DNA from: an uncultured Bacteroidota bacterium | GTDB taxonomy: Bacteria; Bacteroidota; Bacteroidia; Bacteroidales; FEN-979 | Length of the DNA stretch: 61,410 bases | Direction of reading: 5' to 3' | Assembly (NCBI GenBank): GCA_937900965.1 | Contig: CALCGJ010000056.1 | Span: 1 to 61,410, forward strand | In this document: positions 261-41,059 of the stretch, in pieces | Position numbering within the stretch: position 1 is the first letter of the stretch | Layout of the letters: each line of letters begins with the position of its first letter | Program-made: the position numbers and the translations under genes | Notes under the pieces: generated by a model | What the model saw: the letters and a program-made list of their open reading frames with translations, nothing else | What the model was told of the DNA's origin: nothing | Databases searched by the model: none

Positions 261-1412
261 ATGGAAACCAGCAAACTCAAATACTCCCATTTGTTACCGG
301 TACTGATGGCATTCATGGTCATGAGTTTTGTCGACCTTGTTGGCATCGGTGTCGACCGCGTTAGTAAAGACATGGCTCTCAGCGCTACCATGGGCCAGCT
401 GATCCCCTCTGCTGCTTTCCTCTGGTTCCTGCTGCTCTCGGTACCGACCGGAATTGTTCAGGCACGAATAGGTAAACGGCACATACTGAACATTGGTATG
501 GTTATCACAGCCATAGGCATGCTTCTCCCCTACTTCTCCTACTCTTTCGGGACCGTTCTGGTCGGGTTTGCCCTGTTGGGGATCGGGAACACGATAGTAC
601 AGGTGTCGGCCAATCCATTGCTTGTTGATGTGGTGTCGGGTCGGAAGGTTTCCAGTTTCATGAGCTTTTCGCAGTTTGTCAAATCGGTAGGATCGATGAT
701 AGGGGCGCCGTTTGCAGCTTTTTGCGCTATCCAGTTCGGAGATTGGAAACTAATCTTCCTTGTTTTCGGGATCGTCTCTATTTTATCAGCCCTGTGGCTT
801 GGTTCTGTAAAGATCGATGAACTGAAAGTAGAAGGCCAACGGGTCACGTTTGGATCCGCCTTCAAATTGCTTGGCAATAGATTCATCCTGATGATGGTCA
901 TGTCAATTTTCGTTGTTGTTGGTATCGATGTTGGATTCAATTCAAACTCGGGACAATTCCTGATCAGACATTTCGGAATTGAAGATATTGCCGCTGAATC
1001 GGGAAGAAGTATTTACTTTTTCGGCAAGATGCTTGGCACCTTCCTGGGAGCCATCCTGTTAACCCGGTTATCCCCCCGCAAGTTCTTCGTCTGGACATCC
1101 ATTCTCGGCATCATTGCCCTTGTTATCATCATTTTCTCCACCGCTCATTTCATGGCCTGGATCCTGGTTTTCGTCATTGGCCTGACTGTGGCCAATATCT
1201 GGCCACTTGTATTTTCGATTACCATCGAGAAATATCCGGACCGGGGTAACGAGGTCTCAGGACTGATGATGATGGCGATCTGCGGAGGAGCCGTTATCCC
1301 ACTGCTGATGGGCTGGATCACTGACCTGTCGTCAGCCATGATGGGCATGGCAGTACTGATTCTCTGTATGGTTTATCTGCTGGGGGTGGCGTTGTATACG
1401 CTGAAGAAATGA
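261..1412 (+). CDS. MFS sugar transporter (FucP/GluP-like)
   Basis: 383 aa with about 12 hydrophobic segments; GNTIVQVSANPLL and MMMAICGGAVIP are FucP-like motifs; follows a ROK gene. Confidence 0.8.
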   Translation: METSKLKYSHLLPVLMAFMVMSFVDLVGIGVDRVSKDMALSATMGQLIPSAAFLWFLLLSVPTGIVQARIGKRHILNIGMVITAIGMLLPYFSYSFGTVLVGFALLGIGNTIVQVSANPLLVDVVSGRKVSSFMSFSQFVKSVGSMIGAPFAAFCAIQFGDWKLIFLVFGIVSILSALWLGSVKIDELKVEGQRVTFGSAFKLLGNRFILMMVMSIFVVVGIDVGFNSNSGQFLIRHFGIEDIAAESGRSIYFFGKMLGTFLGAILLTRLSPRKFFVWTSILGIIALVIIIFSTAHFMAWILVFVIGLTVANIWPLVFSITIEKYPDRGNEVSGLMMMAICGGAVIPLLMGWITDLSSAMMGMAVLILCMVYLLGVALYTLKK

Positions 1413-1480
1413 CAGGAATGATAACAATGACGAATGACATGAATTCGAATTATTCGTCATTCTTGCTCATTCTTGTCATT
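1408..1480. repeat. Imperfect inverted repeat of AATGAC(A/G)AG units between convergent genes; probable bidirectional terminator; second half-copy at 37508-37546
   Basis: Left arm AATGACAGGAATGATAACAATGACGAAT; right arm (reverse complement) AATGACAAGAATGAGCAAGAATGACGAAT. The arms contain the stop codons of both flanking genes. Confidence 0.7.
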
Positions 1481-2180
1481 GCACCAGGGTTCCCACCTTC
1501 TCCCCTTGTACAACCCTCTTCAGATTCCCGGTTACGTTCATATTGAACACTACGATGGGCAGGTTGTTCTCTTTACATAGGGTGAAGGCGGTGAGGTCCA
1601 TTATTTTCAGCCCTTTTTCTATGGCTTCATTGAATGAAAGTGTCTCATATCTCACAGCGGTAGGATCTTTTTCAGGGTCGGCCGTATAGACACCGTCCAC
1701 GCGGGTACCTTTGAGGATAACATCTGCTTTGATCTCCACGGCACGAAGTGCAGAAGCAGTATCGGTGGTAAAATAGGGATTTCCGGTCCCCCCGCTGATG
1801 ATGGTAATGAAGCCCTGTTCCAGGTATTGAATTGCCCGGTCGCTGCTCATCTCCTCCACAATGGGATCAATGGCAATACCGCCCAGAAGTTTTGACCTAA
1901 GACCTAGTTTCTCCAATGCATCCTGGATTGCCATGCTATTGATCACTGTAGCCAGCATGCCCATGTAGTCGCCAGTTACACGGTTGACTCCCTGTACAGT
2001 CCCTTGAAGTCCTCTGAAGATATTCCCTCCTCCGATCACAATAGCAACCTGGACGTGCTCATCTACAACGGATTTAACTTCAGCAGCATAAGTTGCCAGT
2101 CGCTGCGGGTCGATGCCATAGCCCTGTGCGCCTTCAAGGGCTTCACCGGAGAGCTTTAAAAGAATCCTTGTATACTTCAT
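1476..2180 (-). CDS. pyrH: UMP kinase
   Basis: RILLKLSGEAL, GGGNIFRG, GDYMGMLATVIN, GTGNPYFTTDT. Start moved to the ATG of MKYTRILL because the longer ORF start lies inside a palindrome. Confidence 0.97.
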   Translation of the reverse strand: MKYTRILLKLSGEALEGAQGYGIDPQRLATYAAEVKSVVDEHVQVAIVIGGGNIFRGLQGTVQGVNRVTGDYMGMLATVINSMAIQDALEKLGLRSKLLGGIAIDPIVEEMSSDRAIQYLEQGFITIISGGTGNPYFTTDTASALRAVEIKADVILKGTRVDGVYTADPEKDPTAVRYETLSFNEAIEKGLKIMDLTAFTLCKENNLPIVVFNMNVTGNLKRVVQGEKVGTLVQ

Positions 2181-2197
2181 AGGGTTCACTTTACATA

Positions 2198-2226
2198 GTT
2201 GGAGGCGAGGCATGCCTCGCCTTTAC
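2198..2226. repeat. REP-like palindrome (AGGCGAGGCATGCCTCGCCT)
   Basis: Perfect 20-bp palindrome at 2203-2222, closely related to the copy at 23269-23296. Confidence 0.8.
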
Positions 2227-2266
2227 GTCTTTCGTCCTTCGTCCCTCGTCCTTCATCCTTTATCCT
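2226..2266 (-). repeat. Heptamer tandem array (GGACGAR-type) starting at the secA stop
   Basis: Minus strand reads GGATAAA GGATGAA GGACGAG GGACGAA GGACGAA; same family as 28880-28911. Confidence 0.75.
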
Positions 2267-7022: not shown

Positions 7023-7085
7023 CTCACCCCACCCCACCCACCCCCTAAAGGGGAGGGAGTAAGTCCCCTTTAGGGGATTTAGGGG
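7023..7085. repeat. CCCCTAAATCCCC/AAGGGGACTT double-hairpin element, copy 1
   Basis: CCCCCTAAAGGGGAGGGAGTAAGTCCCCTTTAGGGGATTTAGGGG, with related copies at 23890, 28803 and 60627. It contains the coaD stop. Confidence 0.8.
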
Positions 7086-8438: not shown

Positions 8439-8439
8439 A

Positions 8440-10082: not shown

Positions 10083-10110
10083 CTTGAGCCGCAATGAATT
10101 GCGGCTGTAC
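10083..10110. repeat. REP-like palindrome between rpsB and tsf
   Basis: Minus strand GTAC-AGCCGCAAT-TC-ATTGCGGCT. A GGGATAC heptamer remnant at 10126-10153 overlaps the rpsB stop. Confidence 0.65.
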
Positions 10111-10146
10111 TTTCGGGTTTATCGCAGATCCCGTATCCCGTATCGC

Positions 10147-11064
10147 TTATCGCTTGGATCTTCCGGCTGGCTTGGTAATCCGTTTCCGCGGGGATTTGGC
10201 CGAATCAGATTCCTTGTCGTCTGCTCCCTTCACTTTCGAAAGGTTTGTGTTGACGTTATCTTTCCGGGTGACCTTGATTCCATCTTCCTCATCATCGTCG
10301 CGATCCATAAGGGTGTTAAAATCATCTTCTCCACCTTCTTCCAGTTCATCTTCAGCAGCTTTCTTGTCTCTGTCGAGTTTGCGTTCAACGAGACCCTCCT
10401 CAATTGCATTCATCATAATCTCAACGATCAGTGAGATTGATTTGGAAGCATCGTCGTTAGCCGGGATCGGAAAATCAACCAGCCGGGGGTCTGAGTTGGT
10501 GTCTACGATCGCAAAGGTTGGAATATTGAGTTTTCGGGCTTCTGCCAGTGCAATGTGCTCTTTCAGGATATCCACAATAAACAGGGCAGCAGGTAACCGG
10601 TTAAGATCAGCAATACTACCCAGGTTCTTCTCCAGTTTTGCGCGTTCACGTGTGAGGGTAAGGCGCTCTTTTTTAGAGAGGTTATCATATGAAGGGCTGC
10701 TCATCAGTTTATCGATGGAGGTCATTTTTCTGACCGCTTTCCTGATGGTTGCAAAATTGGTGAGCATACCACCAGGCCACCGCTCGGTCATGTATGGCAT
10801 GTTAATCCGCTTCACCTTTTCAGCTACCAGCTCTTTGGCCTGTTTTTTCGTGGCGACAAAGAGGACTTTCTTTCCCGACTTGGCGATCTGCTTAATTGCA
10901 GCTGCAGCTTCGTCGATCTTGCCCATAGTTTTATAGAGATCAATGATGTGAATCCCGTTTCGTTCCATGAAGATATAGGGAGCCATGCTTGGGTTCCATT
11001 TCCGCTTCAGGTGACCGAAGTGAACACCGGCATCAAGCAATTCATTAAATGTCGTTCTCGGCAT
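10147..11064 (-). CDS. rpsB: 30S ribosomal protein S2
   Basis: LLDAGVHFGH, RWPGGMLTNF, DTNSDP, PIPANDDA; long acidic C-terminal tail. Confidence 0.99.
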   Translation of the reverse strand: MPRTTFNELLDAGVHFGHLKRKWNPSMAPYIFMERNGIHIIDLYKTMGKIDEAAAAIKQIAKSGKKVLFVATKKQAKELVAEKVKRINMPYMTERWPGGMLTNFATIRKAVRKMTSIDKLMSSPSYDNLSKKERLTLTRERAKLEKNLGSIADLNRLPAALFIVDILKEHIALAEARKLNIPTFAIVDTNSDPRLVDFPIPANDDASKSISLIVEIMMNAIEEGLVERKLDRDKKAAEDELEEGGEDDFNTLMDRDDDEEDGIKVTRKDNVNTNLSKVKGADDKESDSAKSPRKRITKPAGRSKR

Positions 11065-12082: not shown

Positions 12083-13024
12083 ATGCGAAACTCTCTGATT
12101 ACGTTTTCTTTTGAGCAGTTCCTGGAGATGGCAGGAGACAGGGAGTCGCTGGAGCTATACCGAGAGGTTCCTTTCCCAAATTATGGGTATGAAAAACTTC
12201 TTGGCCTCTTTCATCAATTTTGCCTTGTTGGTGGAATTCCCGATGTTGTAGAGTTGTTTGCTGCTTCCAGGGACATTCTCCTGTTGTCTCCGATCTATGA
12301 ACGGAACCTGGAAGAGCTATTCTTCAAAGCGGCTTCAATTGCCACAACACAAAAAACAGGTGAACGGCTGGTCCAGATATACCAGGACTCCTTCACGTTT
12401 GCTGCTACAAGGATCAAATTCAACGGATTCAGTGACGAGCGGTTTCACAGCCGTGAAGTTAGTCAAGCGTTTCATCTCCTGCAGGAACACGGACTCATCC
12501 AACTTCTCTACCCCACCATACATGCCGATCTGCCCTTTGATACAGACAAACATCGTTCTCCCCGGATTCAACTACCGGATACCGGGCTGGTTAACTATTT
12601 TACCGGAATTCAGGATGCATTAACGGATCAGAAGGATCTTTCGGCAATATTCAACCGTCAGATATCTCTGCACATTGTCGCACAGGAGTTGATGACTTCA
12701 ACGGAAGCTGGTAACAAAACACTTCATTTCTGGGTCAGGGGCAAAACCCAGTCCTCTGCAGAGGTAGATTTTGTGATCCAACACCAGGATTTGATGATCC
12801 CCGTTGAGGTAAAGAGAGGCGAGCCGGGCCGATTGCGTTCCCTGCACCAATTTGTGGAAGCTGCATCCCATCCGTTTGCTGTGCGACTTTATGCGGGTCC
12901 TTTGATGGTAAAAGAGGCCCGTACAACTTCTGGAGAAACATACTACCTGATGAGTTTACCTTACTTTCTGGGAGGAAAGATCAGGGAACATCTGGAGGGA
13001 TTTATGAAGTTTGTAGGAAAGTAG
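12083..13024 (+). CDS. DUF4143-domain protein lacking the usual N-terminal AAA ATPase domain
   Basis: FSFEQFL, VGGIPDVV, PRIQLPDTGLVN, HFWVR...AEVDFVI....IPVEVK.G..GRLRSLHQF; no Walker A motif in the ORF. Confidence 0.7.
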   Translation: MRNSLITFSFEQFLEMAGDRESLELYREVPFPNYGYEKLLGLFHQFCLVGGIPDVVELFAASRDILLLSPIYERNLEELFFKAASIATTQKTGERLVQIYQDSFTFAATRIKFNGFSDERFHSREVSQAFHLLQEHGLIQLLYPTIHADLPFDTDKHRSPRIQLPDTGLVNYFTGIQDALTDQKDLSAIFNRQISLHIVAQELMTSTEAGNKTLHFWVRGKTQSSAEVDFVIQHQDLMIPVEVKRGEPGRLRSLHQFVEAASHPFAVRLYAGPLMVKEARTTSGETYYLMSLPYFLGGKIREHLEGFMKFVGK

Positions 13025-13085
13025 GGAGGTAGGGAGGTAGGGATGTAGGATGTAGGATGTAGGATGTAGGATGTAGGATGTAGGA
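13021..13085 (+). repeat. Compound tandem array: (GTAGGGAG) about 3 copies then (TGTAGGA)x6
   Basis: Read directly; the first unit contains the TAG stop of the upstream gene. Confidence 0.95.
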
Positions 13086-14067: not shown

Positions 14068-15102
14068 ATGTCGATCAAGGTTGATCATATCACCAAACTT
14101 TACGGAACCCAGAAAGCACTTAACGATGTAACCCTTGAAATCAAACCAGGAGAAGTTGTTGGCTTGTTGGGACCTAACGGTGCAGGGAAAAGCACTTTGA
14201 TGAAAATCCTTACCTCCTATATCCCGCCTACTTCAGGGGAAGCATCAGTGAGTGGATTTGATGTAATGGAACAATCTATGGAGGTTCGGAAACGGGTAGG
14301 ATATCTTCCTGAGAATAATCCGCTTTACACGGACCTCTATGTGAAGGAATTTTTGCAGTTTATTGCGAAGATTAATCATGGTGATAAAAGTCGGAAGTCA
14401 GAAGTCAGAAGTACGAAATCAACTACGAAGGAAGAAGTTAGAAGTGTTATTTCCGCGGAGCGAATCAAAGAGATAATTGACCTCACGGGGTTAGAAGCGG
14501 AACAGCATAAGAAAATCGGAGCGCTTTCAAGGGGTTACCGGCAGCGGGTGGGACTGGCACAGGCGTTGCTTCATGACCCCGAAGTATTGATCCTTGATGA
14601 GCCAACTTCCGGCCTGGACCCTAACCAGCTGGTTGAGATCCGGAATCTGATCCAATCAATAGGGAAAGAGAAAACAATCATGATGTCGACCCACATCATG
14701 CAAGAGGTGGAGGCGATCTGCGACCGTACTATCATAATCCACAAAGGAAAAATTGTTGCAGATGATAAAACAAAAAACCTCCAGAAGATGCAGCCATCGA
14801 AGATCATTATCAAGGTGGAGTTCGATAAACCAGTTCCACCCAATAAACTGATGAAGATTGTGGGTGTAAAAGACGCTTTCGACCCGAAGGCACAACTCCA
14901 GCATCAAGGATCCAGGATCCAGCATCAAGGATCCAGGATCCAGAATCCGGCATCCGGCATTTGGCATCTTGAATCAGAAGCATCAATTGACATCCGTCCG
15001 GCAGTATTCAAGTTTGCCGTTGACAATAATCTGACTGTCCTTTCACTGCAGCGTGACGAGCATCGGCTTGAAGAGGTTTTTCAGGAACTGACGAGAACGT
15101 AA
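14068..15102 (+). CDS. gldA: Gliding-motility-associated ABC transporter ATP-binding subunit
   Basis: GPNGAGKST, GYLPENNPLY.DLYVKEFL, KKIGALSRGYRQRVGLAQALLHDP, DEPTSGLDPNQL, STHIMQEVEAICDR; TACTTTTG box at 14037-14044. Confidence 0.85.
   Translation: MSIKVDHITKLYGTQKALNDVTLEIKPGEVVGLLGPNGAGKSTLMKILTSYIPPTSGEASVSGFDVMEQSMEVRKRVGYLPENNPLYTDLYVKEFLQFIAKINHGDKSRKSEVRSTKSTTKEEVRSVISAERIKEIIDLTGLEAEQHKKIGALSRGYRQRVGLAQALLHDPEVLILDEPTSGLDPNQLVEIRNLIQSIGKEKTIMMSTHIMQEVEAICDRTIIIHKGKIVADDKTKNLQKMQPSKIIIKVEFDKPVPPNKLMKIVGVKDAFDPKAQLQHQGSRIQHQGSRIQNPASGIWHLESEASIDIRPAVFKFAVDNNLTVLSLQRDEHRLEEVFQELTRT
14387..14447 (+). repeat. In-frame GAAGTCA/GAAGTAC heptamer array in gldA
   Basis: AAAGTCG GAAGTCA GAAGTCA GAAGTAC GAAATCA...GAAGTTA GAAGTGT; same family as 61336-61397. 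Confidence 0.75.
14897..14970 (+). repeat. In-frame TCCAG(C/G)A heptamer array in gldA
   Basis: The 21-mer TCCAGCATCAAGGATCCAGGA occurs twice, then TCCAGAA TCCGGCA TCCGGCA TTTGGCA; encodes QHQGSRIQHQGSRIQNPASGIWH. Confidence 0.9.
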
Positions 15103-15150
15103 GAGAGTATGAGAGTATGAGGGTATGAGGGTATGAGAGTATGAGAGTAT
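15103..15150 (+). repeat. Octamer array (GAG(A/G)GTAT)x6
   Basis: Read directly, immediately after the gldA stop. Confidence 0.95.
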
Positions 15151-15219: not shown

Positions 15220-15227
15220 CGCCTGCA

Positions 15228-15279
15228 GGGTGGAAAGATTTGATTGATTGCAACCACTGGAAAAAATGCTAAACCAACA
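15228..15279 (+). ncRNA. SAM-II/SAM-V-like riboswitch in the metK leader
   Basis: GTGG (P1) - AAAGATTTG - ATTGATTGC - AA - CCAC (P1') - linker - GCTAAA-CCAA. This matches the GAUUU, UUGC and GCUAAA signature of SAM-II pseudoknots, and it lies upstream of SAM synthetase. Confidence 0.7.
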
Positions 15280-15343
15280 GCCTTTCCAACTTTCAAATCC
15301 CATTTCTGTAAGAAAATTAACGCAAACTAAAAATAGTTAGATC

Positions 15344-16699
15344 ATGGGATATTTGTTTACATCGGAGTCTGTTTCAGAGGGGCATCCGGATAAAGTAGCC
15401 GATCAGATATCGGACGCGCTGCTGGATGAATTTTTACGCTGGGACCCTGAATCCAAAGTTGCTTGTGAGACTTTTGTTACCACTGGTCTTGTAGTATGTG
15501 GCGGAGAAGTAAGAACAGAGGGCTGGGTTGACGTTCAGGAGACAGCCAGGAAAGTGATACGAGAAATAGGGTACACCAAAGCCGAATATCGTTTCGACAG
15601 CGAATCATGTGGAGTCATATCAACGATTCATGAGCAATCATCAGACATTAATCAGGGTGTTGTCCGTGCAAAGAAAGAGGAACAGGGAGCTGGCGACCAG
15701 GGAATGATGTTTGGATATGCATGCCGGGAGATGGATAACTTCATGCCTCTGTCGAGCGAACTGGCCCACATCCTTCTGCAGGAACTGGCAGAAATCCGCA
15801 GGGAAGGGAAGCATATGAAGTATCTAAGGCCCGATTCCAAATCACAGGTTACCGTTGAATATGGCGAGAATGGGCAACCTCTTCGGGTAGATACTATCGT
15901 GGTAAGCACCCAACATGACGAGTTCATCCTACCAAAGAATACCTCTTTCAAAGCGTTAAAAGCTGCGGAAAAAGAGATGCAGGATAAAATCCGTGTCGAT
16001 ATTGAGAAGGTGTTGATCCCCAGGGTCAGGAAGACGTTGCCTGCACGGGTCAAGAAATTGTTTGGAGATGATTACAAATTGTTTGTGAATCCAACGGGGA
16101 AATTTGTTATCGGGGGGCCACACGGTGATACAGGACTTACGGGCAGAAAGATCATTGTTGATACCTATGGAGGGCATGGAGCCCATGGCGGAGGTGCCTT
16201 CTCCGGAAAAGATCCTTCAAAGGTAGACCGCTCAGCCGCTTATGCTGCCCGTCACATTGCCAAGAACATGGTTGCCGCAGGAATCGCCGACCAGGTGATG
16301 ATCCAGGTAGCTTATGCCATTGGAGTAGCACAACCAGTAGGTCTGTATGTAAATACTTATGGAACAGCTAAAATTACCGATAAAAAAGGAAAAACCCTGA
16401 CTGATTGGGAGATCGCTGTAAAAATCAACAAGGTATTCGATATGCGTCCGTATGCTATCATTGAGCGGTTTGGATTGAAAAATCCCATTTTCCTTCCTAC
16501 AGCTTCCTACGGGCATTTCGGGAGAGATCCGTTCACCAGATATATCGATGTCTATTACCAGGTAAAAGGCTCCAAAGCGAAGAAAGGGAATGGAACTGCC
16601 AAAGAGGTTTACCAGAAGAAAGTTGATTTCTTTGCCTGGGAGAAACTGGATTATGTTGAGAAACTCAGGAAAGAGTTCGGGATCAAGGCTGGATCCTAG
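15344..16699 (+). CDS. metK: S-adenosylmethionine synthetase
   Basis: [57 protein letters not shown]. Confidence 0.99.
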
Positions 16700-16724
16700 A
16701 TGCTGTATCCTGGATCCTGGATGG
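16681..16724 (+). repeat. GGAT(C/G)CT heptamer array overlapping the metK stop
   Basis: GGCT GGATCCT AGATGCT GTATCCT GGATCCT GGATGGC; same family as 37449-37507, and reverse complement of the gldA insert at 14897. Confidence 0.75.
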
Positions 16725-23268: not shown

Positions 23269-23296
23269 GTAGAGACGAGGCATGCCTCGTCTCTAC
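23269..23296. repeat. GTAG-type REP palindrome GTAGAGACGAGGCATGCCTCGTCTCTAC
   Basis: Perfect 28-bp palindrome; its TAG is the rdgB stop codon. Confidence 0.9.
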
Positions 23297-27783: not shown

Positions 27784-28839
27784 ATGAATGACCTCAATGA
27801 ACATACGGAAGAATCGGGCGAGTTATATGAGCATTACCGATTTGTGGTAGATGGTGGCCAGAATCCTCTGCGAATCGATAAATATCTGTTCACCAAACTT
27901 GCTGATGCCTCCCGAAACCGAATTCAAAACGCTGCGAAAGCCGGGAATATCCTCGTGAACGACAAGGTGGTAAAGCCAAATCACAAAATCAAACCTCACG
28001 ATATTATCACGATCGTCCTTGCTTATCCTCCAAGGGATACAGAGATCTATCCTGAAGAAATCCCGGTAAACATTGTATATGAAGACAACGACATTCTTGT
28101 TGTCAACAAAGCGGCAGGAATGGTGGTACATCCCGGTCATGGTAATTTCACGGGCACCCTTCTGAACGCATTGGTTTATTATTTTCAGAACTCCCCCGGG
28201 AATAAGGCCATTGAAGCCAAACCGTATCTGGCTCACCGGATAGATAAGGATACAACTGGAATCCTGCTGATTGCAAAAAATGAGATAGCTCAATCAAAAC
28301 TAGCGAAACAGTTCTTCGATCACAGTGTTAACAGGACATACTTAGCCTTGGTATGGGGCGACTTCGGGGATGATGAAGGCACTGTTACAGGGAATATAGG
28401 CCGAAGCCCACGCGACCGTACGGTAATGACTGTTTACGACGATGAAGAGGTAGGCCGGCATGCCGTTACACACTACAGGGTAGTTGAACGGTTTGGGTAT
28501 GTAACCCTGGTGGAATGCCGGCTGGAGACCGGGCGAACTCACCAGATCCGTACCCATTTCAAACATATTGGTCACCCGATTTTCAACGATGCTAAATATG
28601 GTGGAGACAAGATCCTGAAAGGGACAACGTTTACGAAATACAAACAATATATCGAAAATTGCTTCGGCTTGATGCCAAGGCAAGCCCTGCATGCCAAATC
28701 TCTGGGGTTTATCCATCCTTCAACACGGAAACCTTTGTTCTTTGATTCCGGGTTGCCGGAGGATTTTCAGGCGGTAGTGGAGAAGTGGAGGAAATATTCG
28801 GGTTCACCCCTCCCAAACTCCCCTAAAGGGGAGGAATAA
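27784..28839 (+). CDS. rluD: RluA/RluD family 23S rRNA pseudouridine synthase
   Basis: S4 domain RIDKYL..SRNRIQ; VVNKAAGMVVHP, HRIDKDTTG, LETGRTHQIR, RQALHA. Confidence 0.9.
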   Translation: MNDLNEHTEESGELYEHYRFVVDGGQNPLRIDKYLFTKLADASRNRIQNAAKAGNILVNDKVVKPNHKIKPHDIITIVLAYPPRDTEIYPEEIPVNIVYEDNDILVVNKAAGMVVHPGHGNFTGTLLNALVYYFQNSPGNKAIEAKPYLAHRIDKDTTGILLIAKNEIAQSKLAKQFFDHSVNRTYLALVWGDFGDDEGTVTGNIGRSPRDRTVMTVYDDEEVGRHAVTHYRVVERFGYVTLVECRLETGRTHQIRTHFKHIGHPIFNDAKYGGDKILKGTTFTKYKQYIENCFGLMPRQALHAKSLGFIHPSTRKPLFFDSGLPEDFQAVVEKWRKYSGSPLPNSPKGEE

Positions 28840-28863
28840 GTCCCCTTTAGGGGAGTTAGGGGC
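28803..28863. repeat. CCCCTAA double-hairpin element, copy 3
   Basis: CTCCCCTAAAGGGGAGGAATAAGTCCCCTTTAGGGGAGTTAGGGG; supplies the last residues and the stop of rluD. Confidence 0.8.
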
Positions 28864-28879
28864 GAGTCAGAAGGAAAGG

Positions 28880-28911
28880 AAGAGGGACGAGGGACGAGGG
28901 ACGAAGGATGA
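28880..28911 (+). repeat. GGGACGA heptamer array
   Basis: GAGGGACGAGGGACGAGGGACGAAGGATGAA. Confidence 0.8.
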
Positions 28912-28933: not shown

Positions 28934-29686
28934 ATGAAAAAGCTGGGGACATATCTAATTTCGGTTTATTTCTGGATCGAGATGTTCGGGAGTTCTGCGA
29001 TCTTGTTTCCGGTAGCAGTTCTGATCTGGCTGGTTACCATGCCTTTCGATAGCAGACGATATTATTTGCACCAGTTCTCATGCACTTGGTCCAACCTGGC
29101 TTTCTGGTTAAACCCGTTATGGCGCTTAACCGTTTCCGGTAAGGATAAGATCGATAAAAAAGGGACTTATGTGATTGTCTCAAACCATCAGTCGGGGGCA
29201 GATATCCTGGTACTTTTCACCCTTCGACTGCATTTCAAATGGGTAGCAAAACGAATCCTTTTCTTTACCCCCTTTCTTGGATGGAACATGGCCATGAACC
29301 GTTACATTGCACTTCGAAGAGGGAAGAAATCGAGTATGCACCGGATGATGGAGAAGTCAAAGGAAGGATTGTTGCAAGGCAATTCTATGATGATCTTTCC
29401 TGAAGGGACCCGGTCTAAGGATGGACAACTGCAACCCTTCAGGAGTGGAGCATTCCACCTGGCTCTAAACGCTCAAATCCCAATTCTGCCAATCGTCATC
29501 AAAGGTACATCTAAAGCCATCCGCAAAGGGGGATTCCTGATCTCAAAACAGCATGATCTGAGGGTGGTGATTCTTGATCCGATCCCTTATAACTCGTTCA
29601 AAGATATGGAACCGAAACAGCTTGCGGAAATTGTACATAATCGAATTGAGGATGAACTAACCTCAGCCCCAGAAACCCTTTCCTGA
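28934..29686 (+). CDS. plsC: 1-acyl-sn-glycerol-3-phosphate acyltransferase
   Basis: NHQSGAD (HX4D), IFPEGTRS, PILPIVI. Confidence 0.85.
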   Translation: MKKLGTYLISVYFWIEMFGSSAILFPVAVLIWLVTMPFDSRRYYLHQFSCTWSNLAFWLNPLWRLTVSGKDKIDKKGTYVIVSNHQSGADILVLFTLRLHFKWVAKRILFFTPFLGWNMAMNRYIALRRGKKSSMHRMMEKSKEGLLQGNSMMIFPEGTRSKDGQLQPFRSGAFHLALNAQIPILPIVIKGTSKAIRKGGFLISKQHDLRVVILDPIPYNSFKDMEPKQLAEIVHNRIEDELTSAPETLS

Positions 29687-29771
29687 AGAAACTACCTCAC
29701 CCCCGACACCCTTTCCTGAAGGATCAAAATCACCTCACCCCCTAACCCCCTCTCCTGAAGGAGATGGGGGA
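29660..29771. repeat. Three tandem degenerate copies of ACCTCACCCCC..ACCC.TCTCCTGAAG; only the last keeps its GGAGA.GGGGG closing arm
   Basis: Units at 29660-29688, 29694-29721 and 29732-29771, between convergent plsC and mqnE. Confidence 0.75.
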
Positions 29772-30892: not shown

Positions 30893-32730
30893 AGCTTGAT
30901 GATTCTACCCGTAATAACCTGCTCATCTAAAGAGATTCTAAGCAGGTAAAAGCCACCAGGAAGAGTTGAGGTATCAAGCGTAATCTGATTGGTCCCATTA
31001 CCTTGTTTGACTACCGTCATGACTGGCCTTCCCCATGAATCCAAAAGGGTGATATAGACAAGATCCTGGTTCAAAAAGATGATGGATTTCAGGTGCAGGA
31101 TGTCTGATGCCGGGTTCGGATAAATCTTCAATTCGGTGGGACCTATTTCGGCTTCAGGGATATTCAACGAGATTCCGTCAAGTACCATCACACCAGTGTT
31201 GTCGGGATCAATCCAATAATCAAGTCGCCTTGATGAATCTGCACCATTCAGGTCCCAGGAATAGCTAAACTTTCCGTAGTAATCAGGTTGATCAAGGAAA
31301 CTTGAATCACATGAGGCATCTCCACCGGTCAGAGCACCAACGATCCTCCTGGCCGGGTCAAAGAGCGGGGATCCGGAGGAGCCTCCTTCAGTCACCCCGT
31401 GACCACTGACGGTTTCTGCCCAAACCATCTCCCAGTGTGTCATCACCGGACCTCCAATCCAGCTTGAAGGAACCAGTGGAGTAATATAGGTTGATATTTT
31501 CTTGATATCTCCATCGGGATGATGAATGCCAACCCCATTCGGACTGGAGACATCCGCCCGATTCCAACCGTTGAACCATACATCAAAGGTATCGGGAACT
31601 GTTTGGTTTAATAACAGCAACAAGAAATCGGATCCACCAACGAATACATTTCCGCTGGCAGCTTTCACCACAGCTCCTGTCAGGGATCTGAAAACCGGGG
31701 CGAAAGGTGGATCCTCACAGGTGGGTGACTGGAATCCGAAATAAAAGATCCATTGGTTGATATCCTGCGGGGTTGCTCCTGTAACACAATGATCTGCTGT
31801 TAAGAAATAGGGCGATTTATCCTGCCGTGTATTGTTCAGCAGAGAGCCGGAACACCAGTAGGTGCCTCCATTCTTCTTCACACCGATCCGGGCAATCCCT
31901 TTTTGTTGATCCAGCCAGAGATTGCCTTCAGGACAGTGAACATTCACCTCACATGGGCCTGAAGTACCAAATCCAATTCTGTCAACTGCCTCAGGAACAC
32001 CACGATAGGCATAGGCAATTTCAGATATATGCAGCACCGGAAAACCAGATGTCTGTACAGGCTGGTTATATTCCAGTGTAATTTGATCACCAGGGATCAA
32101 AGCGGTAGAGAATAGCTCTGCCGTGTTATTGTTTAATTCCGTAAACGCTCCCAGCACCCTGGATTTATCACGATTGTATATAAAAAGCCGGCCTCCGGCA
32201 GGTATCTTAAACCTGTCAAAATAGAGGGTAATAGCTTTGGCCCCGGGGGCCTGAATTGTACAAAGCCAAAGACGATCGCCGGAGGGAAGTTTTTTCAAGG
32301 ATCCGCAATTCGGGATCCGCGATTCGGGATACGTGATATGGGATGCCGGATGCCGTTGCCGCGTCGCTCCTGCTTCTCCCGAGTACTCGGGATCGCAGCT
32401 TCGGCTCCTCGCAATGACATTAGTGCCCATTAACTGCTCACTGCTGGCTGCCAACTGCTCACTGATCCCCACGTCCACTTGCAGGTTGACAGCAAACCGG
32501 TATGGGACAGGATGCAGAAGATCCTCTTCGGCCACCGCATCCAAATCGGGAGGCGTCAGAATTAAATCAACGGAAAGAGGTTGACCGGATTTCAGATTAA
32601 AACTCCACGGAGTTCCTCCCCGGTTCAACTGCGCGGAAGAAATTACAGGCTCCATGAGACATACCATGAGCATCAACATCCCGGCGAAGACATGTTTCAT
32701 GCAGATCAGTATATCCCTGGTCTTATTCAA
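30889..32730 (-). CDS. Lysyl-endopeptidase-like (trypsin fold) serine protease with T9SS CTD (start may be 32700)
   Basis: CSGSLLNN, LTADHC, SDFLLL, GIHHPDGDIKKIS, TEGGSSGSPLF; CTD IYPNPA...GFYLLRI. Confidence 0.85.
   Translation of the reverse strand: MNKTRDILICMKHVFAGMLMLMVCLMEPVISSAQLNRGGTPWSFNLKSGQPLSVDLILTPPDLDAVAEEDLLHPVPYRFAVNLQVDVGISEQLAASSEQLMGTNVIARSRSCDPEYSGEAGATRQRHPASHITYPESRIPNCGSLKKLPSGDRLWLCTIQAPGAKAITLYFDRFKIPAGGRLFIYNRDKSRVLGAFTELNNNTAELFSTALIPGDQITLEYNQPVQTSGFPVLHISEIAYAYRGVPEAVDRIGFGTSGPCEVNVHCPEGNLWLDQQKGIARIGVKKNGGTYWCSGSLLNNTRQDKSPYFLTADHCVTGATPQDINQWIFYFGFQSPTCEDPPFAPVFRSLTGAVVKAASGNVFVGGSDFLLLLLNQTVPDTFDVWFNGWNRADVSSPNGVGIHHPDGDIKKISTYITPLVPSSWIGGPVMTHWEMVWAETVSGHGVTEGGSSGSPLFDPARRIVGALTGGDASCDSSFLDQPDYYGKFSYSWDLNGADSSRRLDYWIDPDNTGVMVLDGISLNIPEAEIGPTELKIYPNPASDILHLKSIIFLNQDLVYITLLDSWGRPVMTVVKQGNGTNQITLDTSTLPGGFYLLRISLDEQVITGRIIKL
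32298..32464 (-). repeat. In-frame compound insert (heptamers plus RPE-like arm with nested palindrome) in the protease prodomain
   Basis: Minus strand: GAGCAGT/GGCAGC heptamers, GTCATTGCGAGGAGCCGAAG[CTGCGATCCCGAGTACTCGGGAGAAGCAG]GAGCGACGCGGCAA, then ATCCCGN heptamers. Confidence 0.85.
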
Positions 32731-36754: not shown

Positions 36755-36762
36755 TATATTTG
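36755..36762 (+). promoter_or_regulatory. -7 promoter box 5 nt before the mqnB ATG (probable leaderless transcript), back-to-back with the MFS promoter
   Basis: TATATTTG-TTTCC-ATG. Confidence 0.55.
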
Positions 36763-36767
36763 TTTCC

Positions 36768-37463
36768 ATGAAGATCCTGATTGTCTCTGCAACCCATTTT
36801 GAGATCAAAAAGCTGATGGAGAGGAATGACCTTGTTGAAGTTATCCCCAACCACCTCTACCGCTTCAGCATGGTTCCGTTGCAGGTGGATTTGCTGAATA
36901 CAGGAATGGGGATGCTTCAGACAGCATTTTACCTGGGAAAAACAATGCAGGAAAGATCATATGATTTTGCATTAAATGCAGGTATCTGCGGAGCTTATCA
37001 CCCTGAGATACCCTTGGGGAGTGTTCTTCATATAACGGAAGAGGGACTTCCTGAACCAGGTGTTGAAGAGGAGGGTGCGTTCAGGAGTATTTTCGAGCTT
37101 GGGTTGATGCATTCTGATGCATTCCCATTCGAAGGCGGGAAACTGACAAACACGCTTGTTTCAGAATGGGAAGCCATCAACCGGTTACCTAAAGTTACCG
37201 GAAATTCTGTCAACACAATGCAAACTGATCCGGGAAAAATAAAGCGACTGACAACCCTTTTTCCAGCAGATGTGGAGACCATGGAGGGAGCCGCATTCCT
37301 GTTTGGCTGTCTTGTTGAAAAGATCCCCTGTGCCCAGATCCGAGCAGTATCGAATTATGTGGGTGAGCGGGATAAGACCAAATGGGAGGTCCGGCTTGCG
37401 CTAAAAAATCTTGATACAGTGTTGATGGAAGTGTTGGAAGAAATCATAGATTCTGGATCCTAG
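36768..37463 (+). CDS. mqnB: Futalosine hydrolase
   Basis: MKILIVSATHFEI, TGMGM..TAF, NAGICG, VETMEGAAF, QIRAVSNYVGERDK..W; adjacent to mqnD. Confidence 0.88.
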   Translation: MKILIVSATHFEIKKLMERNDLVEVIPNHLYRFSMVPLQVDLLNTGMGMLQTAFYLGKTMQERSYDFALNAGICGAYHPEIPLGSVLHITEEGLPEPGVEEEGAFRSIFELGLMHSDAFPFEGGKLTNTLVSEWEAINRLPKVTGNSVNTMQTDPGKIKRLTTLFPADVETMEGAAFLFGCLVEKIPCAQIRAVSNYVGERDKTKWEVRLALKNLDTVLMEVLEEIIDSGS

Positions 37464-37623
37464 ATCCTGGATCCTGGATGCTGGATGCTAGATGCTGGAT
37501 GCTGGATAATGACAAGAATGAGCATGAGTGACGAATGACATGAATTACCTTTTACATTTCTGACCTGATAACTGACAACTGACAACTGACTCCATGACCC
37601 CATGACCCCATGACCTCATGACC
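37449..37623 (+). repeat. Mosaic of four repeat families: GGAT(C/G)CT heptamers, AATGACAAG element, AACTGAC heptamers, CCATGACC octamers
   Basis: Read directly between mqnB and mqnD; includes the mqnB stop. Confidence 0.9.
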
Positions 37624-37665
37624 ATTAAAACAGATAAAACTAAATACAGTAAATCGTAAATCTCT

Positions 37666-38481: not shown

Positions 38482-39865
38482 AAACATCCCCCGAAATACA
38501 ATTTCAGCGATTTTCAGCCAGGCTCTTCATGAAGGTCTGATCCGTGAGGAAGATACGGCGGTACTCTTTCATGACTTCAATTATCTTGCATCACGCATAG
38601 CATATCTAAAATCCTGTTTTCCGTCTGACACTCTTCACGGACTGGCTATTAAATCAAATCCCCTTCTCCGGATACTGGAATTTACGCGGACAATGGGAAC
38701 ATGCGTAGAAGCTGCTACCGTAGGAGAGGTTACTCTGGCTATGAGAACCGGCTACAGCCCCAATCAGGTTATCTTTGATTCCCCTGTCAAAACAGAAGCT
38801 GATCTTCGGTTTGCCCTTGAGCTTGGGGTACACATGAACTGCGACAATCTCACAGAATTAAACCGGGTTGACAGTCTTCTTAAAAATATTACTTCCAACT
38901 CCACTATAGGTATCCGGATCAATCCCCAGATAGGTGTTGGTGCCATTCTTGAGTCGAGTGTGGCCGGGAAATATTCGAAATTCGGAGTTCCTGTCAATAC
39001 CATGAGAAGGGAGCTGGAAGATGCTTTTGCTAACTATCCGTGGCTTACAGGCGTCCATCTTCACGTAGGATCACAGGGATGTGCCATGGAGATGCTTGTG
39101 AACGGAGTGGGTGTACTTTATGATTTTGTATGTGAAGTAAACCAAAAACGAACAGCGAAGGGCGAACAGCCTGTTGCAATCTTCGACATTGGAGGAGGAC
39201 TGCCAATTTCCTATTCCTATCAACAGAGACCTCCACGGATGGAGGATTATGTGGCGGCATTGCGGGAAAGGGCCCCGGGATTGTTTGATAGCTCAGGGCA
39301 CAGGGCACAGGGCACAGGGCTCAGGGCACAGGGCTCAGAGAGTTCTTCACCCCGGCACCACGGCACCATGGCACCACGGCAAAATGGCGAAACCGGAGAG
39401 GTATCCTGGAGACTGATCACTGAATTCGGGCGGTGGGTATTCGTAAACAGTGGTTTTACAGTCAGCCGGGTGGAGTATGTGAAAAGGGATCCCGGCATTA
39501 ACACAGCCATGATCCATGTTGGAGCTGATCTTTTTGTCAGAGAATGTTTGAATCCAACAGACTGGAAGCATGAATACAGTATCCTGGATTCGCAGGGCAA
39601 ACTTAAGAAGGGTCTTGATGACCAGCCTTATAACATCGCAGGGCCGCTCTGTTTTGCAGGTGATATCCTGGCCAAAGGGATCCCGCTTCCGAAAGTGGAA
39701 GAGGGGGACTGGCTTGTGATCCATGATACCGGAGGATATACATTTTCGATGTGGTCTCGCTACAACAGCAGGCAAACACCGAGGATACTCGGCTGGTTTG
39801 AGGGGACGTTTTCGGTTTTGAAGGAGAGGGAGAGTCTGGAGGATTTGGTTGGGTTTTGGGAGTGA
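38474..39865 (+). CDS. lysA: Group IV PLP-dependent decarboxylase, diaminopimelate decarboxylase-like
   Basis: AIKSNP (PLP Lys), SKFG, HLHVGSQ, DIGGG, TEFGR, IAGPLCFAGD, DTGGY; substrate not certain. Confidence 0.7.
   Translation: MIENIPRNTISAIFSQALHEGLIREEDTAVLFHDFNYLASRIAYLKSCFPSDTLHGLAIKSNPLLRILEFTRTMGTCVEAATVGEVTLAMRTGYSPNQVIFDSPVKTEADLRFALELGVHMNCDNLTELNRVDSLLKNITSNSTIGIRINPQIGVGAILESSVAGKYSKFGVPVNTMRRELEDAFANYPWLTGVHLHVGSQGCAMEMLVNGVGVLYDFVCEVNQKRTAKGEQPVAIFDIGGGLPISYSYQQRPPRMEDYVAALRERAPGLFDSSGHRAQGTGLRAQGSESSSPRHHGTMAPRQNGETGEVSWRLITEFGRWVFVNSGFTVSRVEYVKRDPGINTAMIHVGADLFVRECLNPTDWKHEYSILDSQGKLKKGLDDQPYNIAGPLCFAGDILAKGIPLPKVEEGDWLVIHDTGGYTFSMWSRYNSRQTPRILGWFEGTFSVLKERESLEDLVGFWE
39291..39400 (+). 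repeat. In-frame CAGGGC(A/T) heptamers plus GGCACCA(C/T) octamers in lysA
   Basis: Encodes SGHRAQGTGLRAQGSESSSPRHHGTMAPRQNGETGE just before the conserved LITEFGR. Confidence 0.9.
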
Positions 39866-39920
39866 AGGCATGGAGGCATGGAGGCATGCCTTCTTGCCTC
39901 CATGCCTTCATGCCTTTGTA
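39863..39920. repeat. Head-to-head inverted octamer arrays (TGGAGGCA)n/(TGCCTCCA)n
   Basis: TGAAGGCATGGAGGCATGGAGGCA-TGCCTTCTTGCCTCCATGCCTTCA; begins at the lysA stop; related units at 59355-59374. Confidence 0.85.
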
Positions 39921-39965
39921 CCTTTATTCCTTTTCACTACCTTTACCTCCCAAAATCAAACGCGC

Positions 39966-40931
39966 ATGATCATCGTTACAGGAGCTGCCGGATTTATTGG
40001 AAGTTGTTTAGTTGGCAAACTCAATAACCAGGGAATCAAAGAGATTGGGATTGTTGATGATTTTTCCCATCCGGAGAAAGCCCTTAACACCCGGAATAAG
40101 GCATTTGAGGTCTCCATCGACCGGAAAGAATTTGCTGACTGGTTCCGCAAAAACAACGGATTAGTTGAGTTCGTCTATCATATTGGTGCACGCACCGATA
40201 CTACAGAGTTCAACATGTCTGTATTTGATGAACTCAATCTGAACTACTCCAAAGAGATCTGGAAACTTTGCACCGCGTTTAATATTCCACTGGTTTATGC
40301 ATCCTCTGCTGCCACCTATGGCGATGGATCCCTGGGATATACTGACGATCACAATCTCATCCCAAAACTTCAACCCCTGAATCCTTATGGAGTTTCCAAA
40401 AATGAGTTTGACAAATGGGTGTTGAGCCAGGAGAAGACTCCCCCCTATTGGTTTGGGTTGAAATTCTTCAATGTCTTCGGACCCAATGAGTACCACAAAG
40501 GGAGAATGGCATCTGTGGTTTTTCATGCTTACAATCAGATACGGGATACTGGATCCGTGAAATTGTTTCGTTCACATAATCCTGATTACCCGGATGGGGA
40601 ACAGTTGAGAGACTTTATCTATGTCAAAGATGTGGTGGATGTACTGTATTTTCTGATGAATCATCAAACAAATTCCGGAATTTATAACCTAGGTACAGGA
40701 AAAGCGCGCACCTTCCTTGATCTGGTCAACAGCGTATTCACTGCTCTGGGTGAAGACCCCTCCATCGAATTCATCGACACACCTATTGATATCCGTGATA
40801 AATATCAATACTTCACGGAAGCCGCTATGCAAAAGCTCCACTCCATCGGTTATACCAAACCGTTCACGCCTCTTGAAGATGGCATCCGGGAGTATGTGCA
40901 GGAGTATTTAAGAGAGGGGAGCTGTTATTAA
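39966..40931 (+). CDS. rfaD: ADP-L-glycero-D-manno-heptose 6-epimerase
   Basis: MIIVTGAAGFIGS, YASSAATYG, PLNPYGVSK, FFNVFGPNEYHKGRMASV, RDFIYVKD, KYQYFTEA. Confidence 0.93.
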   Translation: MIIVTGAAGFIGSCLVGKLNNQGIKEIGIVDDFSHPEKALNTRNKAFEVSIDRKEFADWFRKNNGLVEFVYHIGARTDTTEFNMSVFDELNLNYSKEIWKLCTAFNIPLVYASSAATYGDGSLGYTDDHNLIPKLQPLNPYGVSKNEFDKWVLSQEKTPPYWFGLKFFNVFGPNEYHKGRMASVVFHAYNQIRDTGSVKLFRSHNPDYPDGEQLRDFIYVKDVVDVLYFLMNHQTNSGIYNLGTGKARTFLDLVNSVFTALGEDPSIEFIDTPIDIRDKYQYFTEAAMQKLHSIGYTKPFTPLEDGIREYVQEYLREGSCY

Positions 40932-40932
40932 G

Positions 40933-41059
40933 GTAGGGAGGTAGGGAGGTAGGGAGGTAGGGAGGTAGGGAGGTGAAAAGGGTGTGAGGGTATGAGGGTT
41001 AGTGGAACTGCCAACTGCAAACTGCCCACTGTCCACTGCCCACTGCCTACTGCCTACTG
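40933..41059 (+). repeat. Mosaic: (GTAGGGAG)x5, GAGGGTAT octamers, ACTGCCN heptamers (about 7 copies)
   Basis: Read directly downstream of rfaD. Confidence 0.95.

Follow-up and report, generated by a model that had tools for sequence, protein, structure and literature searches.

Heptamer repeats in tandem are a familiar feature of cyanobacterial genomes, where the short tandemly repeated repetitive sequences (STRR) form a class comparable to the one considered here. Heptamers are also reportedly the commonest long-unit class among the long simple sequence repeats (LSSR) of Mrázek and co-workers (2007), which are said to have units of 5–11 nt, to be mostly non-coding and to arise by polymerase slippage, as proposed there. 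The present analysis concerns arrays with units of 7 and 8 nt in a stretch of 61,410 nt of DNA (the window) from an uncultured Bacteroidota bacterium, in the remainder of its genome and in its genus, and in particular the position of these arrays at the stop codons of genes.

The closest described systems carry a single family of units in each organism. Rehm et al. (2015) describe GGGAATC repeats in Xanthomonas and GGGGA(C/T)T repeats in Nostoc, which are tandem heptamers enriched in spacers, preferred between open reading frames (ORFs) of the same direction and under-represented between divergent ORFs (PMC4692102). These repeats lie up to 50 bp from a stop codon or overlap the end of the ORF with the G-rich strand coding, and upstream of ORFs the G-rich strand is non-coding; their length and sequence vary at the same sites among close relatives. 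A quadruplex, shown in vitro, is the favoured interpretation, four units are preferred, and no regulatory role was found (PMC4692102). MacGregor (2015) describes TAACTGA repeats in marine Beggiatoaceae, cyanobacteria and five Bacteroidetes, a single unit located mainly a few nucleotides upstream of start codons, for which protein binding was proposed (PMC4679880). Read forward, these repeats introduce a stop into each of the three frames, and 13 sets of them extend over the stop of the gene upstream (PMC4679880).

The arrays analyzed here share with the repeats of Rehm et al. the enrichment in spacers, the placement at stops, the strand rule and the variation between relatives, and with the TAACTGA system the occurrence of heptamer arrays in spacers, oriented relative to the neighbouring genes and overlapping stops. 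They differ in having 179 units of 7 and 8 nt in one genome; in addition, placement was determined here at base resolution against a null, and C-termini were compared among congeners. The kind of repeat is therefore one already described, of which the present arrays are an unusually rich member that extends the rule to many families without quadruplex potential. Searches of the literature yielded neither a description of such a pattern in Bacteroidales nor an account of why the strand rule holds.

Placement, stop content and strand of the 7/8-nt arrays

The window is the entire contig C56 of an assembly of 3.79 Mb in 301 contigs with 45% G+C, and many of its proteins carry type IX secretion sorting domains according to Pfam, which places the organism in Bacteroidota. 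Tandem repeats of the whole genome were detected using Tandem Repeats Finder (TRF), and those with a score of at least 40 and a period of 7 or 8 were kept. Genes (3051) were predicted using a purpose-made hexamer-scored ORF caller, in which the stops are unambiguous and the starts are longest-ORF calls, trimmed on overlap; all placement statistics rest on these gene calls. The null for the arrays was a genome simulated with a third-order Markov model. For placement, the null was obtained from 5000 simulations in which each array was moved to a uniformly drawn position within the free part of its spacer; this free part includes the other arrays of the same spacer.

The anchoring of the 7/8-nt arrays at stop codons was confirmed as real and not a product of chance. 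In spacers between same-strand genes, 149 arrays overlap a stop or lie within 7 nt of it, against 52.3 ± 4.7 expected and a maximum of 73 in the 5000 simulations; in convergent spacers the corresponding figures are 64 and 29.9 ± 3.6. The excess is preserved where an array could have occupied 40 nt or more elsewhere in the spacer (108 against 19.6 in same-strand and 43 against 13.3 in convergent spacers) and for high-scoring genes and arrays only (58 against 9.6 ± 2.9 and 15 against 4.1 ± 1.8, respectively). Array starts number 5–7 per 1000 positions at offsets −3 to +7 from the stop and 1.5–2.0 at offsets 8 to 120, and fall to 0.06 deep in genes; on the start side the values are 0.9–2.8. In same-strand spacers, 176 arrays are nearer to the stop, 104 nearer to the start, and two are equally distant. 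Within 7 nt of starts 58 arrays were found against 52.2 ± 4.9 expected, so that the start placement described for the TAACTGA repeats is absent in this test, which the longest-ORF starts weaken, and the excess is at stops instead. Measuring these distances against a spacer-based null had been suggested in a first-pass annotation of the window; the outcome is a strong excess at stops and none at starts, and uniform placement, with overlap at the level of chance, is rejected. Ten genomes of the same genus (G001–G010) with conserved gene order, which are not independent samples, were used for comparison. In these congeners 17 of the 62 arrays are stop-anchored, with G exceeding C on the sense strand in a ratio of 15:2; the sites are orthologous.

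In the TRF output for the genome, 509 rows have a period of 7 and 284 a period of 8 (793 in total), and the simulated genome contains none of either. The rows merge into 737 clusters, namely, 318 intergenic ones, 237 inside gene calls, 137 over a stop, 30 over a start only, eight over both a stop and a start, and seven others. As in LSSR and STRR, head-to-tail units within the range of 5–11 nt thus occur far above the expectation from composition. They are likewise concentrated in non-coding DNA (237 clusters in ~3.5 Mb of gene calls against 500 in or at the edges of ~0.27 Mb of spacer). Variation was seen between species of the genus, at orthologous sites. In the available accounts of LSSR and STRR neither stop anchoring nor a strand rule is stated, and the high share of 8-nt units is a property of this genome. 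The density of arrays is ~0.07 per kb in coding DNA and 0.76–2.73 per kb in spacers, as purifying selection would give. It is highest in convergent spacers (2.73), lower in same-strand spacers (1.92) and lowest in divergent ones (0.76), in agreement with the rarity between divergent ORFs that Rehm et al. report. The arrays inside genes are distributed flat along the gene length. The 179 canonical units were derived from the 793 rows, exact units recur at up to 43 loci, and the (GGACGAG)n family has 64 runs of at least three units genome-wide; 161 of the 235 stop-anchored arrays use a unit that is also found in at least three arrays elsewhere. Congeners have about 0.2–0.4 arrays per kb. Outside the genus, three of 17 genomes contained one array each and 14 contained none, in samples of ~4 kb that are too small for a firm statement.

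A whole stop codon is contained in 89 arrays, together with 0–8 upstream residues. A second count gave 91 genes with the stop in an array; the unit repeats the same stop one or two periods downstream in 66 of them and is one base off in 18. About 3% of the genes (89–91 of 2863) end inside an array, and the earlier suggestion that stop codons are supplied by the elements holds for the array as a whole in ~91 genes and for the unit itself in 66. The anchored stops are TAG in 96, TGA in 72 and TAA in 67 cases (n = 235), against 591, 787 and 1485 among all genes (n = 2863), which corresponds to a share of 41% against 21% for TAG and of 29% against 52% for TAA. Stops in all three sense frames are present in 59 of the 96 stop-overlapping arrays, and in 16 when the antisense strand is read; no sense-strand stop at all is present in 25 of the 59 arrays that begin 0–10 nt after a stop. 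At offsets −2 to +7, the stop is in register with the unit (2–3 matches) in 71 of 147 arrays against 49 of 147 in an out-of-register control, a modest difference. The overlap with the stop amounts to only one or two bases (offsets −1 and −2) in 49 of the stop-touching arrays. Over the 9 nt beyond the repeat edge, the likeness to the unit is 2.87 on the gene side and 3.03 on the far side. Local seeding from the coding tail was rejected as a general origin on account of these flanks and of the 161 of 235 anchored arrays built from common units. It is kept for single loci such as gldA, where the unit is ACG-TGA-G, i.e., the last codon, TGA and G.

The strand bias relative to transcription, an examination of which had also been suggested, proved to be strong. 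G exceeds C on the sense strand in a ratio of 89:7 for arrays that overlap a stop and of 47:10 for arrays that begin 0–10 nt after it and touch no codon; farther from the stop the bias is reversed (36:87). In convergent spacers the two ratios are 31:7 and 26:6. Up to 10 nt upstream of starts, C exceeds G in a ratio of 31:7 in same-strand and 11:2 in divergent spacers, so that the strand and placement rule given by Rehm et al. recurs here at both ends of genes. The p values of the orientation bias range from 1e-7 to 1e-25. The same family can be found both ways, as GGCAGT[GT] after stops and as AACTGCC before starts; the AACTGCC/GGCAGTT family occurs in both orientations according to place, and its orientation at stops is flipped relative to the (AACTGCC)n array at the end of Table 1.

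Outside repeats, the DNA upstream of starts contains 12–14% G, and the G-poor sense orientation before starts matches these G-poor initiation regions, which may be its cause. The non-repeat DNA after stops has a C content of 0.22 and a G content of 0.17. At least four GGG runs on the sense strand are present in only 33 of the 235 stop-anchored arrays, which separates them from the quadruplex-forming repeats of Rehm et al. The sense bias is 166:27 among the 198 anchored arrays without quadruplex potential on either strand and 123:22 among anchored arrays with no GGG or CCC whatever; since the strand rule holds without G-tracts, the quadruplex idea can be set aside here. Avoidance of Rho as the cause of the G-rich sense bias was not supported, because C exceeds G in the non-repeat DNA after stops and because the bias is also present between convergent genes. 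An effect of the replication strand was rejected as well: in the window, where the cumulative GC skew changes monotonically, arrays behind genes of either strand are G-rich in the sense direction. At stops, the G-rich orientation is an observation for which no explanation emerged.

Array loci of the window and protein ends in congeners

Every gene of the window was inspected from its last codons through the stop into the DNA downstream, and hairpins were evaluated by the RNA folding energy and its z score against shuffles (Table 1). Pfam agrees in substance with the gene names of the first-pass annotation. The matches were MFS, amino-acid kinase (pyrH), secA, cytidylyltransferase (coaD), S2 (rpsB), a DUF4143 protein, ABC ATPase (gldA), SAM synthetase (metK), Ham1 (rdgB), pseudouridine synthase (rluD), acyltransferase (plsC), a PNP_UDP_1 protein beside a menaquinone-synthesis gene (mqnB-like), Orn/DAP/Arg decarboxylase (lysA) and epimerase (rfaD). 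The annotation held that about a dozen genes end in repeats, and every case that it named was found at its place or next to it.

Table 1. Repeat arrays and hairpins at gene ends in the window
Feature	Coordinates	Strand	Support or remark
Inverted pair of GAATGAC-type arrays, convergent MFS/pyrH	1410..1478	.	fold −32.5 kcal/mol, z −7.45
(AAGGACG)n array from secA stop to pyrH start, fills the spacer	2226..2266	-	TRF, sequence
CCCCTAAAGGGG-type hairpin just after coaD	7030..7085	-	fold −34.9 kcal/mol, z −3.0
GCGATAA/GGGATAC heptamer array from last codon and stop of rpsB	10119..10155	-	TRF score 32–34
(GTAGGGAG)n then (TGTAGGA)n arrays, DUF4143 gene	13012..13085	+	TRF scores 53, 91
(GTATGAGA)n array, gldA	15099..15150	+	TRF score 83
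(CTGGATC)n array over metK stop TAG (16697–16699)	16689..16722	+	TRF, sequence, fold
Perfect 28-nt GTAG...CTAC palindrome GTAGAGACGAGGCATGCCTCGTCTCTAC, rdgB	23269..23296	-	fold −21.9 kcal/mol, z −6.7
17-bp hairpin (CTCCCCTAAAGGGGAG ... CTCCCCTTTAGGGGAG-type), rluD	28818..28858	+	fold −33.2 kcal/mol, z −4.9
(GGACGAG)n array between rluD hairpin and plsC start	28878..28908	+	TRF score 48
33-nt repeat, three copies, plsC	29655..29751	+	TRF scores 106, 87
(GATCCTG/GATGCTG)n array, mqnB-like PNP_UDP_1 gene	37443..37507	+	TRF scores 81, 69
(AGGCATGG)n then inverted (CATGCCTT)n, lysA	39866..39933	+	TRF; fold −45.8 kcal/mol, z −8.3
(AGGTAGGG)n then (AGGGTATG)n arrays, rfaD	40931..40999	+	TRF scores 88, 35
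(AACTGCC)n array upstream of gene starting at 41166	41006..41060	+	C-rich strand as sense; TRF

The stops of MFS (TGA, 1410–1412) and pyrH (1476–1478, minus strand), placed by the annotation in one inverted repeat, are the two outer ends of the stem formed by the inverted pair of arrays. Five further stops that it located in array units can be seen there in the sequence. The TAA of secA (2260–2262) lies in GGATAAA, a degenerate AAGGACG unit, and that of rpsB (10147–10149) within GCGATAA; the TAG of the DUF4143 gene (13022–13024) lies in GTAGGGAG, with the last three codons also in the array. The mqnB-like gene has its stop TAG (37461–37463) and its tail SGS in the array, and the last residues of metK, AGS, are array-coded as well. 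Both genes end in GGATCC-TAG (GS before the stop) within CTGGATC/CTGGATG arrays, the TAG being a one-base variant of the TGG of the unit. The array recorded at the gldA stop is present, and the TAA itself (15100–15102) lies in a variant first unit, GTAAGAGA, of GTATGAGA. At two loci arrays exist as described but their limits had to be shifted: the lysA array, thought to include the stop, begins at the base after it (39863–39865), and the rfaD arrays, thought to follow the stop immediately, begin at its last base (40929–40931).

In the remaining cases the stops belong to hairpins or to a longer repeat, which bears out what had been said of coaD, rluD, plsC and rdgB. The TAA of coaD (7079–7081) is in a direct copy of the hairpin half-arm, and the CCCCTAAAGGGG-type motif family has 48 copies genome-wide, four of them over a stop and three within 10 nt after one. 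In rluD, the tail SPKGEE is encoded by the left arm of the hairpin, and the stop TAA (28837–28839) is in the loop. In plsC, both the tail ELTSAPETLS and the stop TGA (29684–29686) come from the first copy of the 33-nt repeat; the repeat is a small coding minisatellite at a protein end. The stop TAG of rdgB (23293–23295) is the TAG of the first arm, at the left end of the palindrome, whose arms contain AGACGAG. The hairpins with a fold value in Table 1 are far more stable than shuffled sequences, their z scores lying between −3.0 and −8.3. A U-tract is present after the hairpin downstream of the metK array, a U-rich stretch follows the lysA array pair, and no clear U-tract is seen within the folded pieces of the rdgB, rluD and coaD hairpins. 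Rfam contains no family that matches any array or hairpin of the window.

Comparison with the congeners showed that the stop position is conserved in nine of the 14 flagged genes, mostly together with the last residues, and that other arrays, or none, are found there in the other genomes. None of the congeners compared departs from this position in MFS and pyrH (both with other repeats), secA, rpsB, the DUF4143 gene, gldA, lysA or rfaD, and coaD keeps it in three of four genomes. At the secA stop, G007 has the same array family and G010 a TTTACGA-type array; the rpsB insert is absent from G009 and G010, where tsf starts 6 nt after the stop. The DUF4143 proteins end in FVGK, FVGR or FVKN at equal length, followed by GTGAGATG or GCGAAATG arrays. 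In eight of eight genomes gldA ends in ELT[RK][TS], and seven of these have arrays or remnants from the stop on, composed of GACGTGA, GGGACGA or GTATGAGA units. In G004, the lysA end FWE is kept and followed by a (GGCACAG)n array, and rfaD has a tail of equal length followed by (GAATTAA)n. Turnover at a fixed stop, with a different unit family or copy number among congeners, is thus seen in gldA, the DUF4143 gene, secA and the gene C78.

Real tail changes were found in the other five flagged genes, namely, metK, the mqnB-like gene, rluD, plsC and rdgB. The metK tails are GIK, GIKA, GIKAGS, INARS and NV (+1 to +3 aa); the repeat at this end is, in congeners, a TGCCGGA array, a CTGGATA array or a GTAG hairpin. 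The mqnB-like gene has four tails in four genomes, and in G010 it reads into a TTCGTAA array (FIRNS). The hairpin-coded SPKGEE of rluD is also present in G004, and G006, G009 and G010 end otherwise, ~11 aa earlier. In plsC, the 11-aa unit encoded by 33 nt is read in frame three times in G009 and once in G006, and G010 has a different tail. The last three residues of rdgB vary, with one long run-on; three congeners have TAG or TAA and a different GC-rich stem ending in CCCCTAC at the same place.

Six further genes were selected for arrays that extend at least five codons into the ORF, and such a selection favours cases of change. The tails vary by 3–16 residues in four of them (C65, C24, C275 and C142). 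In C144, the end DPRS is present in four of four complete copies, once via synonymous codons, which looks as though the tail had become functional; EEVVR at the end of C78 is conserved in three of five genomes. The conserved tails of C144 and C78 resemble the array unit. The statement of the first-pass annotation that C-termini are being rewritten, for which it had recommended a comparison with orthologues, applies to five of the 14 flagged genes and four of the six selected extras; it is not supported for the nine that keep the stop position. Tail rewriting is real yet limited to a minority of tolerant tails. Common repeat-coded ends were also noticed in unrelated proteins (C275, C23, C144, C24, C142 and C41): LDPGS, LDTGS and LDPRS, each followed by the stop, are encoded by CTGGATC arrays, and ends in RLAISD by GCGATTA arrays.

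Several other features of the window involve the same repeats. Frame-preserving 7/8-nt arrays occur inside coding sequences at 39294–39381 (lysA), 14897–14968 and 14388–14412 (gldA), 13565–13676 (ORF 13133–13966) and 32299–32464 (T9SS protein). The internal array of lysA stretches the C-terminal Pfam domain from 95 profile positions to 170 residues. The longest ORF of rfaD (region 39849–39960) begins within lysA, with a TTG at 39849, and crosses the array hairpin; because the Pfam domain begins only at residue 41, the true start is probably downstream of the array hairpin. After the gldA array, ~60 nt upstream of metK, there is a SAM-II riboswitch at 15224–15282 on the plus strand (RF01726, 60.4 bits; gathering score 44).

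Hairpin families and composite segments

Repetitive extragenic palindromic (REP) elements are palindromes with a GTAG-type 5' end that are mobilised by REP-associated tyrosine (RAYT, Y1) transposases. The rdgB palindrome and its 19 relatives, which form a family with the core GAGGCATGCCTC and 20 copies genome-wide, are similar to REP elements in being GC-rich palindromes, the longer ones of the form GTAG...CTAC, situated mostly just after genes. Full GTAG...CTAC palindromes account for six of the 20 copies, including the rdgB element. When the arms are extended, five of the 20 copies are labelled as lying over a stop (four full GTAG...CTAC palindromes including that of rdgB, and a short copy in C17) and five as lying within 10 nt after a stop. 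Two copies are located over a start: the start ATG of pyrH is the centre of the palindrome AGGCGAGGCATGCCTCGCCT (window 2207–2224), and the second, with extended arms, is in C296. The GTAG...CTAC arms include GGACGAG or AGACGAG, a heptamer that also serves as the unit in one of the most common families of arrays, so that hairpins and arrays share building blocks. In this, as well as in the small number of copies and the lack of a detected cognate Y1 transposase, the family differs from REP elements. A profile search with PF01797 in the assembly (G000, completeness 95.85%) gave no Y1/RAYT transposase at E ≤ 0.001; the control search matched six of 14 reference genomes. As the assembly is incomplete, absence is not proven. 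Spread of the elements in the manner of REP, driven by a RAYT, was rejected on the result of this search.

Another hairpin family, GTACA-GCCGCAAT-N-ATTGCGGC-T (GTACAGCCGCAAT..ATTGCGGCT), has 36 copies, of which 23 lie within 150 nt after a stop and ten have a 7/8-mer array within 40 nt. One copy follows the rpsB array near 10088–10105, and the composite of a GCGATAC-type array with this hairpin is found at several loci. Arrays of the type (GTGAACTG)n with at least three units were found at 38 loci; they usually start as stop-(A)CTG and, counted by hand, 23 of the 38 end in G[TC]GAGT. The order (GGTAGGGA)n followed by (GGTATGAG)n is also recurrent and includes the window arrays at 40931–40999. 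The recurrent composites suggest segments copied between loci rather than independent local growth.

Of the 737 arrays, 73 have an inverted partner within 100 nt; a "reversed" control, of a kind unsound for tandem repeats, gave 136. On visual inspection, a minority of the spacers contain both a G-rich array and its complement. Hairpin pairing was rejected as a general explanation; given the unsound control, the test itself says little.

Possible origins of the arrays at gene ends

The explanation that we favour, with a probability of about 0.6, is that the arrays are fast-turnover, microsatellite-like repeats of the LSSR/STRR class that are filtered by selection, both in this genome and in the genus. 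Arrays would be born and altered by slipped-strand mispairing and by copying between arrays, and the small hairpin families would be built partly from array motifs. As the pattern shows, they persist where they are harmless, and the first nucleotides past a stop are the main such place. As neither 7 nor 8 is divisible by three, any stop triplet that the unit contains appears in all three frames; even units without a stop are a single base change away from TAG or TGA. With three-frame or near-stop units, an array can overlie or replace the native stop, and the ORF then ends within one to three units. Most proteins keep their length, and only dispensable tails are rewritten or extended, by 1–16 residues, as the comparison among congeners showed. 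Under such filtering, dedicated targeting machinery would not be required. An exclusive 3'-end mechanism is disfavoured by the 237 of 737 clusters located in genes and by the roughly half of the intergenic arrays that are off stops.

Several observations weigh against this explanation. The stop peak is sharp (5–7 against 1.5–2 array starts per 1000 positions), the excess at stops persists when at least 40 nt of other spacer are available, and it persists between convergent genes, where there is no promoter or initiation region to avoid. The G-rich sense bias is also found in arrays that touch no codon, both overall (47:10) and in convergent spacers (26:6), the DNA after stops is not G-rich outside repeats, and no general constraint that was measured predicts the bias. 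Exact units occur at tens of loci and composites recur, and the copying could itself be site-directed. The sharp stop peak and the strand rule are not accounted for by selection at the protein level alone.

The sharp peak, the codon-free strand rule, the family replacement and the recurrent composites leave room for an installation of arrays linked to termination. According to this rival, which we regard as unlikely, ribosome-free G-rich RNA past the stop re-anneals to form an R-loop, or the polymerase stalls and collides with replication there, and repair by slippage or template switching seeds or expands arrays with the G-rich strand as the non-template one. It would explain why array starts peak at offsets −3 to +7, why stops show a 5.5-fold excess in spite of at least 40 nt of free spacer, and why arrays off the ORF are G-rich in the sense direction even between convergent genes and without quadruplex potential (166:27). 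It also fits an orientation that tracks gene direction and not the replication strand (in the window, with its monotonic cumulative GC skew) and different families at the same stop in different congeners. It leaves unexplained the third or so of the arrays that lie inside genes and the half of the spacer arrays away from stops, and it needs a second explanation for the start-side arrays with the opposite sense strand. R-loops, stalling and repair are, moreover, purely hypothetical in this genome, and one would expect such a process to operate in most bacteria, whereas a high density of arrays is seen chiefly in this genus, as judged from the ~4-kb samples of 17 outside genomes. A more specific variant, in which a process coupled to transcription or to the end of translation, with a G-rich transcript or a stalled polymerase at the point of ribosome release, provokes repair that draws array segments from elsewhere in the genome and inserts them into the first untranslated bases, the G-rich strand being the non-template one in every case, is considered the more doubtful of the two by a fair step.

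Selection for the arrays as cis-elements is an improbable alternative, somewhat less likely than termination-linked installation in its general form. The arrays would then serve as RNA-binding platforms, protect 3' ends, insulate cistrons, act as hairpin terminators (paired inverted arrays) or form a three-frame barrier of stops. Conservation of the sites across congeners while the sequence is replaced speaks for it, as do the recurrence of exact units, the strand rule and the strong folding of the inverted array pairs (−32.5 and −45.8 kcal/mol, z −7.5 and −8.3); stops in three sense frames of 59 of the 96 stop-overlapping arrays, against 16 on the antisense strand, would suit a barrier, and the protein binding that MacGregor proposed for TAACTGA repeats would suit a platform (PMC4679880). 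Set against this, unrelated units (GTAGGGAG, GTGAGATG, GCGAAATG and TTGATAA) are tolerated at one site and some congeners have none, which implies that no specific sequence is required, and 179 units are hard to pair with binding proteins. A stop barrier is at odds with the 25 of 59 arrays 0–10 nt after a stop that have no sense-strand stop, and terminators with the mere 73 of 737 arrays that have an inverted partner (by a test with an unsound control). Rehm et al. found no regulatory role for their repeats (PMC4692102). That the whole pattern is chance or artefact, produced by short spacers, stop-rich units and fuzzy boundaries of repeats or ORFs, is very improbable. It could accommodate the 49 arrays that overlap the stop by just one or two bases, as purine-rich units often would by chance, the stops only modestly more often in register than in the control (71 against 49 of 147) and the gene-side flanks that are no more unit-like than the far ones (2.87 against 3.03 of 9). 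Against it stand the uniform null exceeded in 5000 of 5000 simulations, also for high-confidence genes and arrays, the p values of the orientation bias, the simulated genome without such arrays, and the recurrence of anchoring and bias in the congeners (17 of 62; 15:2), at sites that are orthologous.

Whatever their origin, the arrays matter for annotation: some 3% of the genes end in them, TAG is over-used at such ends, and repeat-coded ends such as LDPGS and LAISD before the stop, which differ among close relatives, should not be mistaken for conserved motifs. In several bacterial phyla, arrays of heptamers and octamers rank with the most abundant repeats that lack an explanation, and their attachment to stops with a fixed strand has been seen previously and never explained. 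Unlike the published single-unit systems, the genus of the present bacterium provides loci in the hundreds, many different families of units and ten congeners in which gene order is conserved. If arrays were indeed installed in a termination-coupled manner, the process would generally supply 3'-end sequence and new protein tails, in Bacteroidota, Xanthomonas and cyanobacteria alike.

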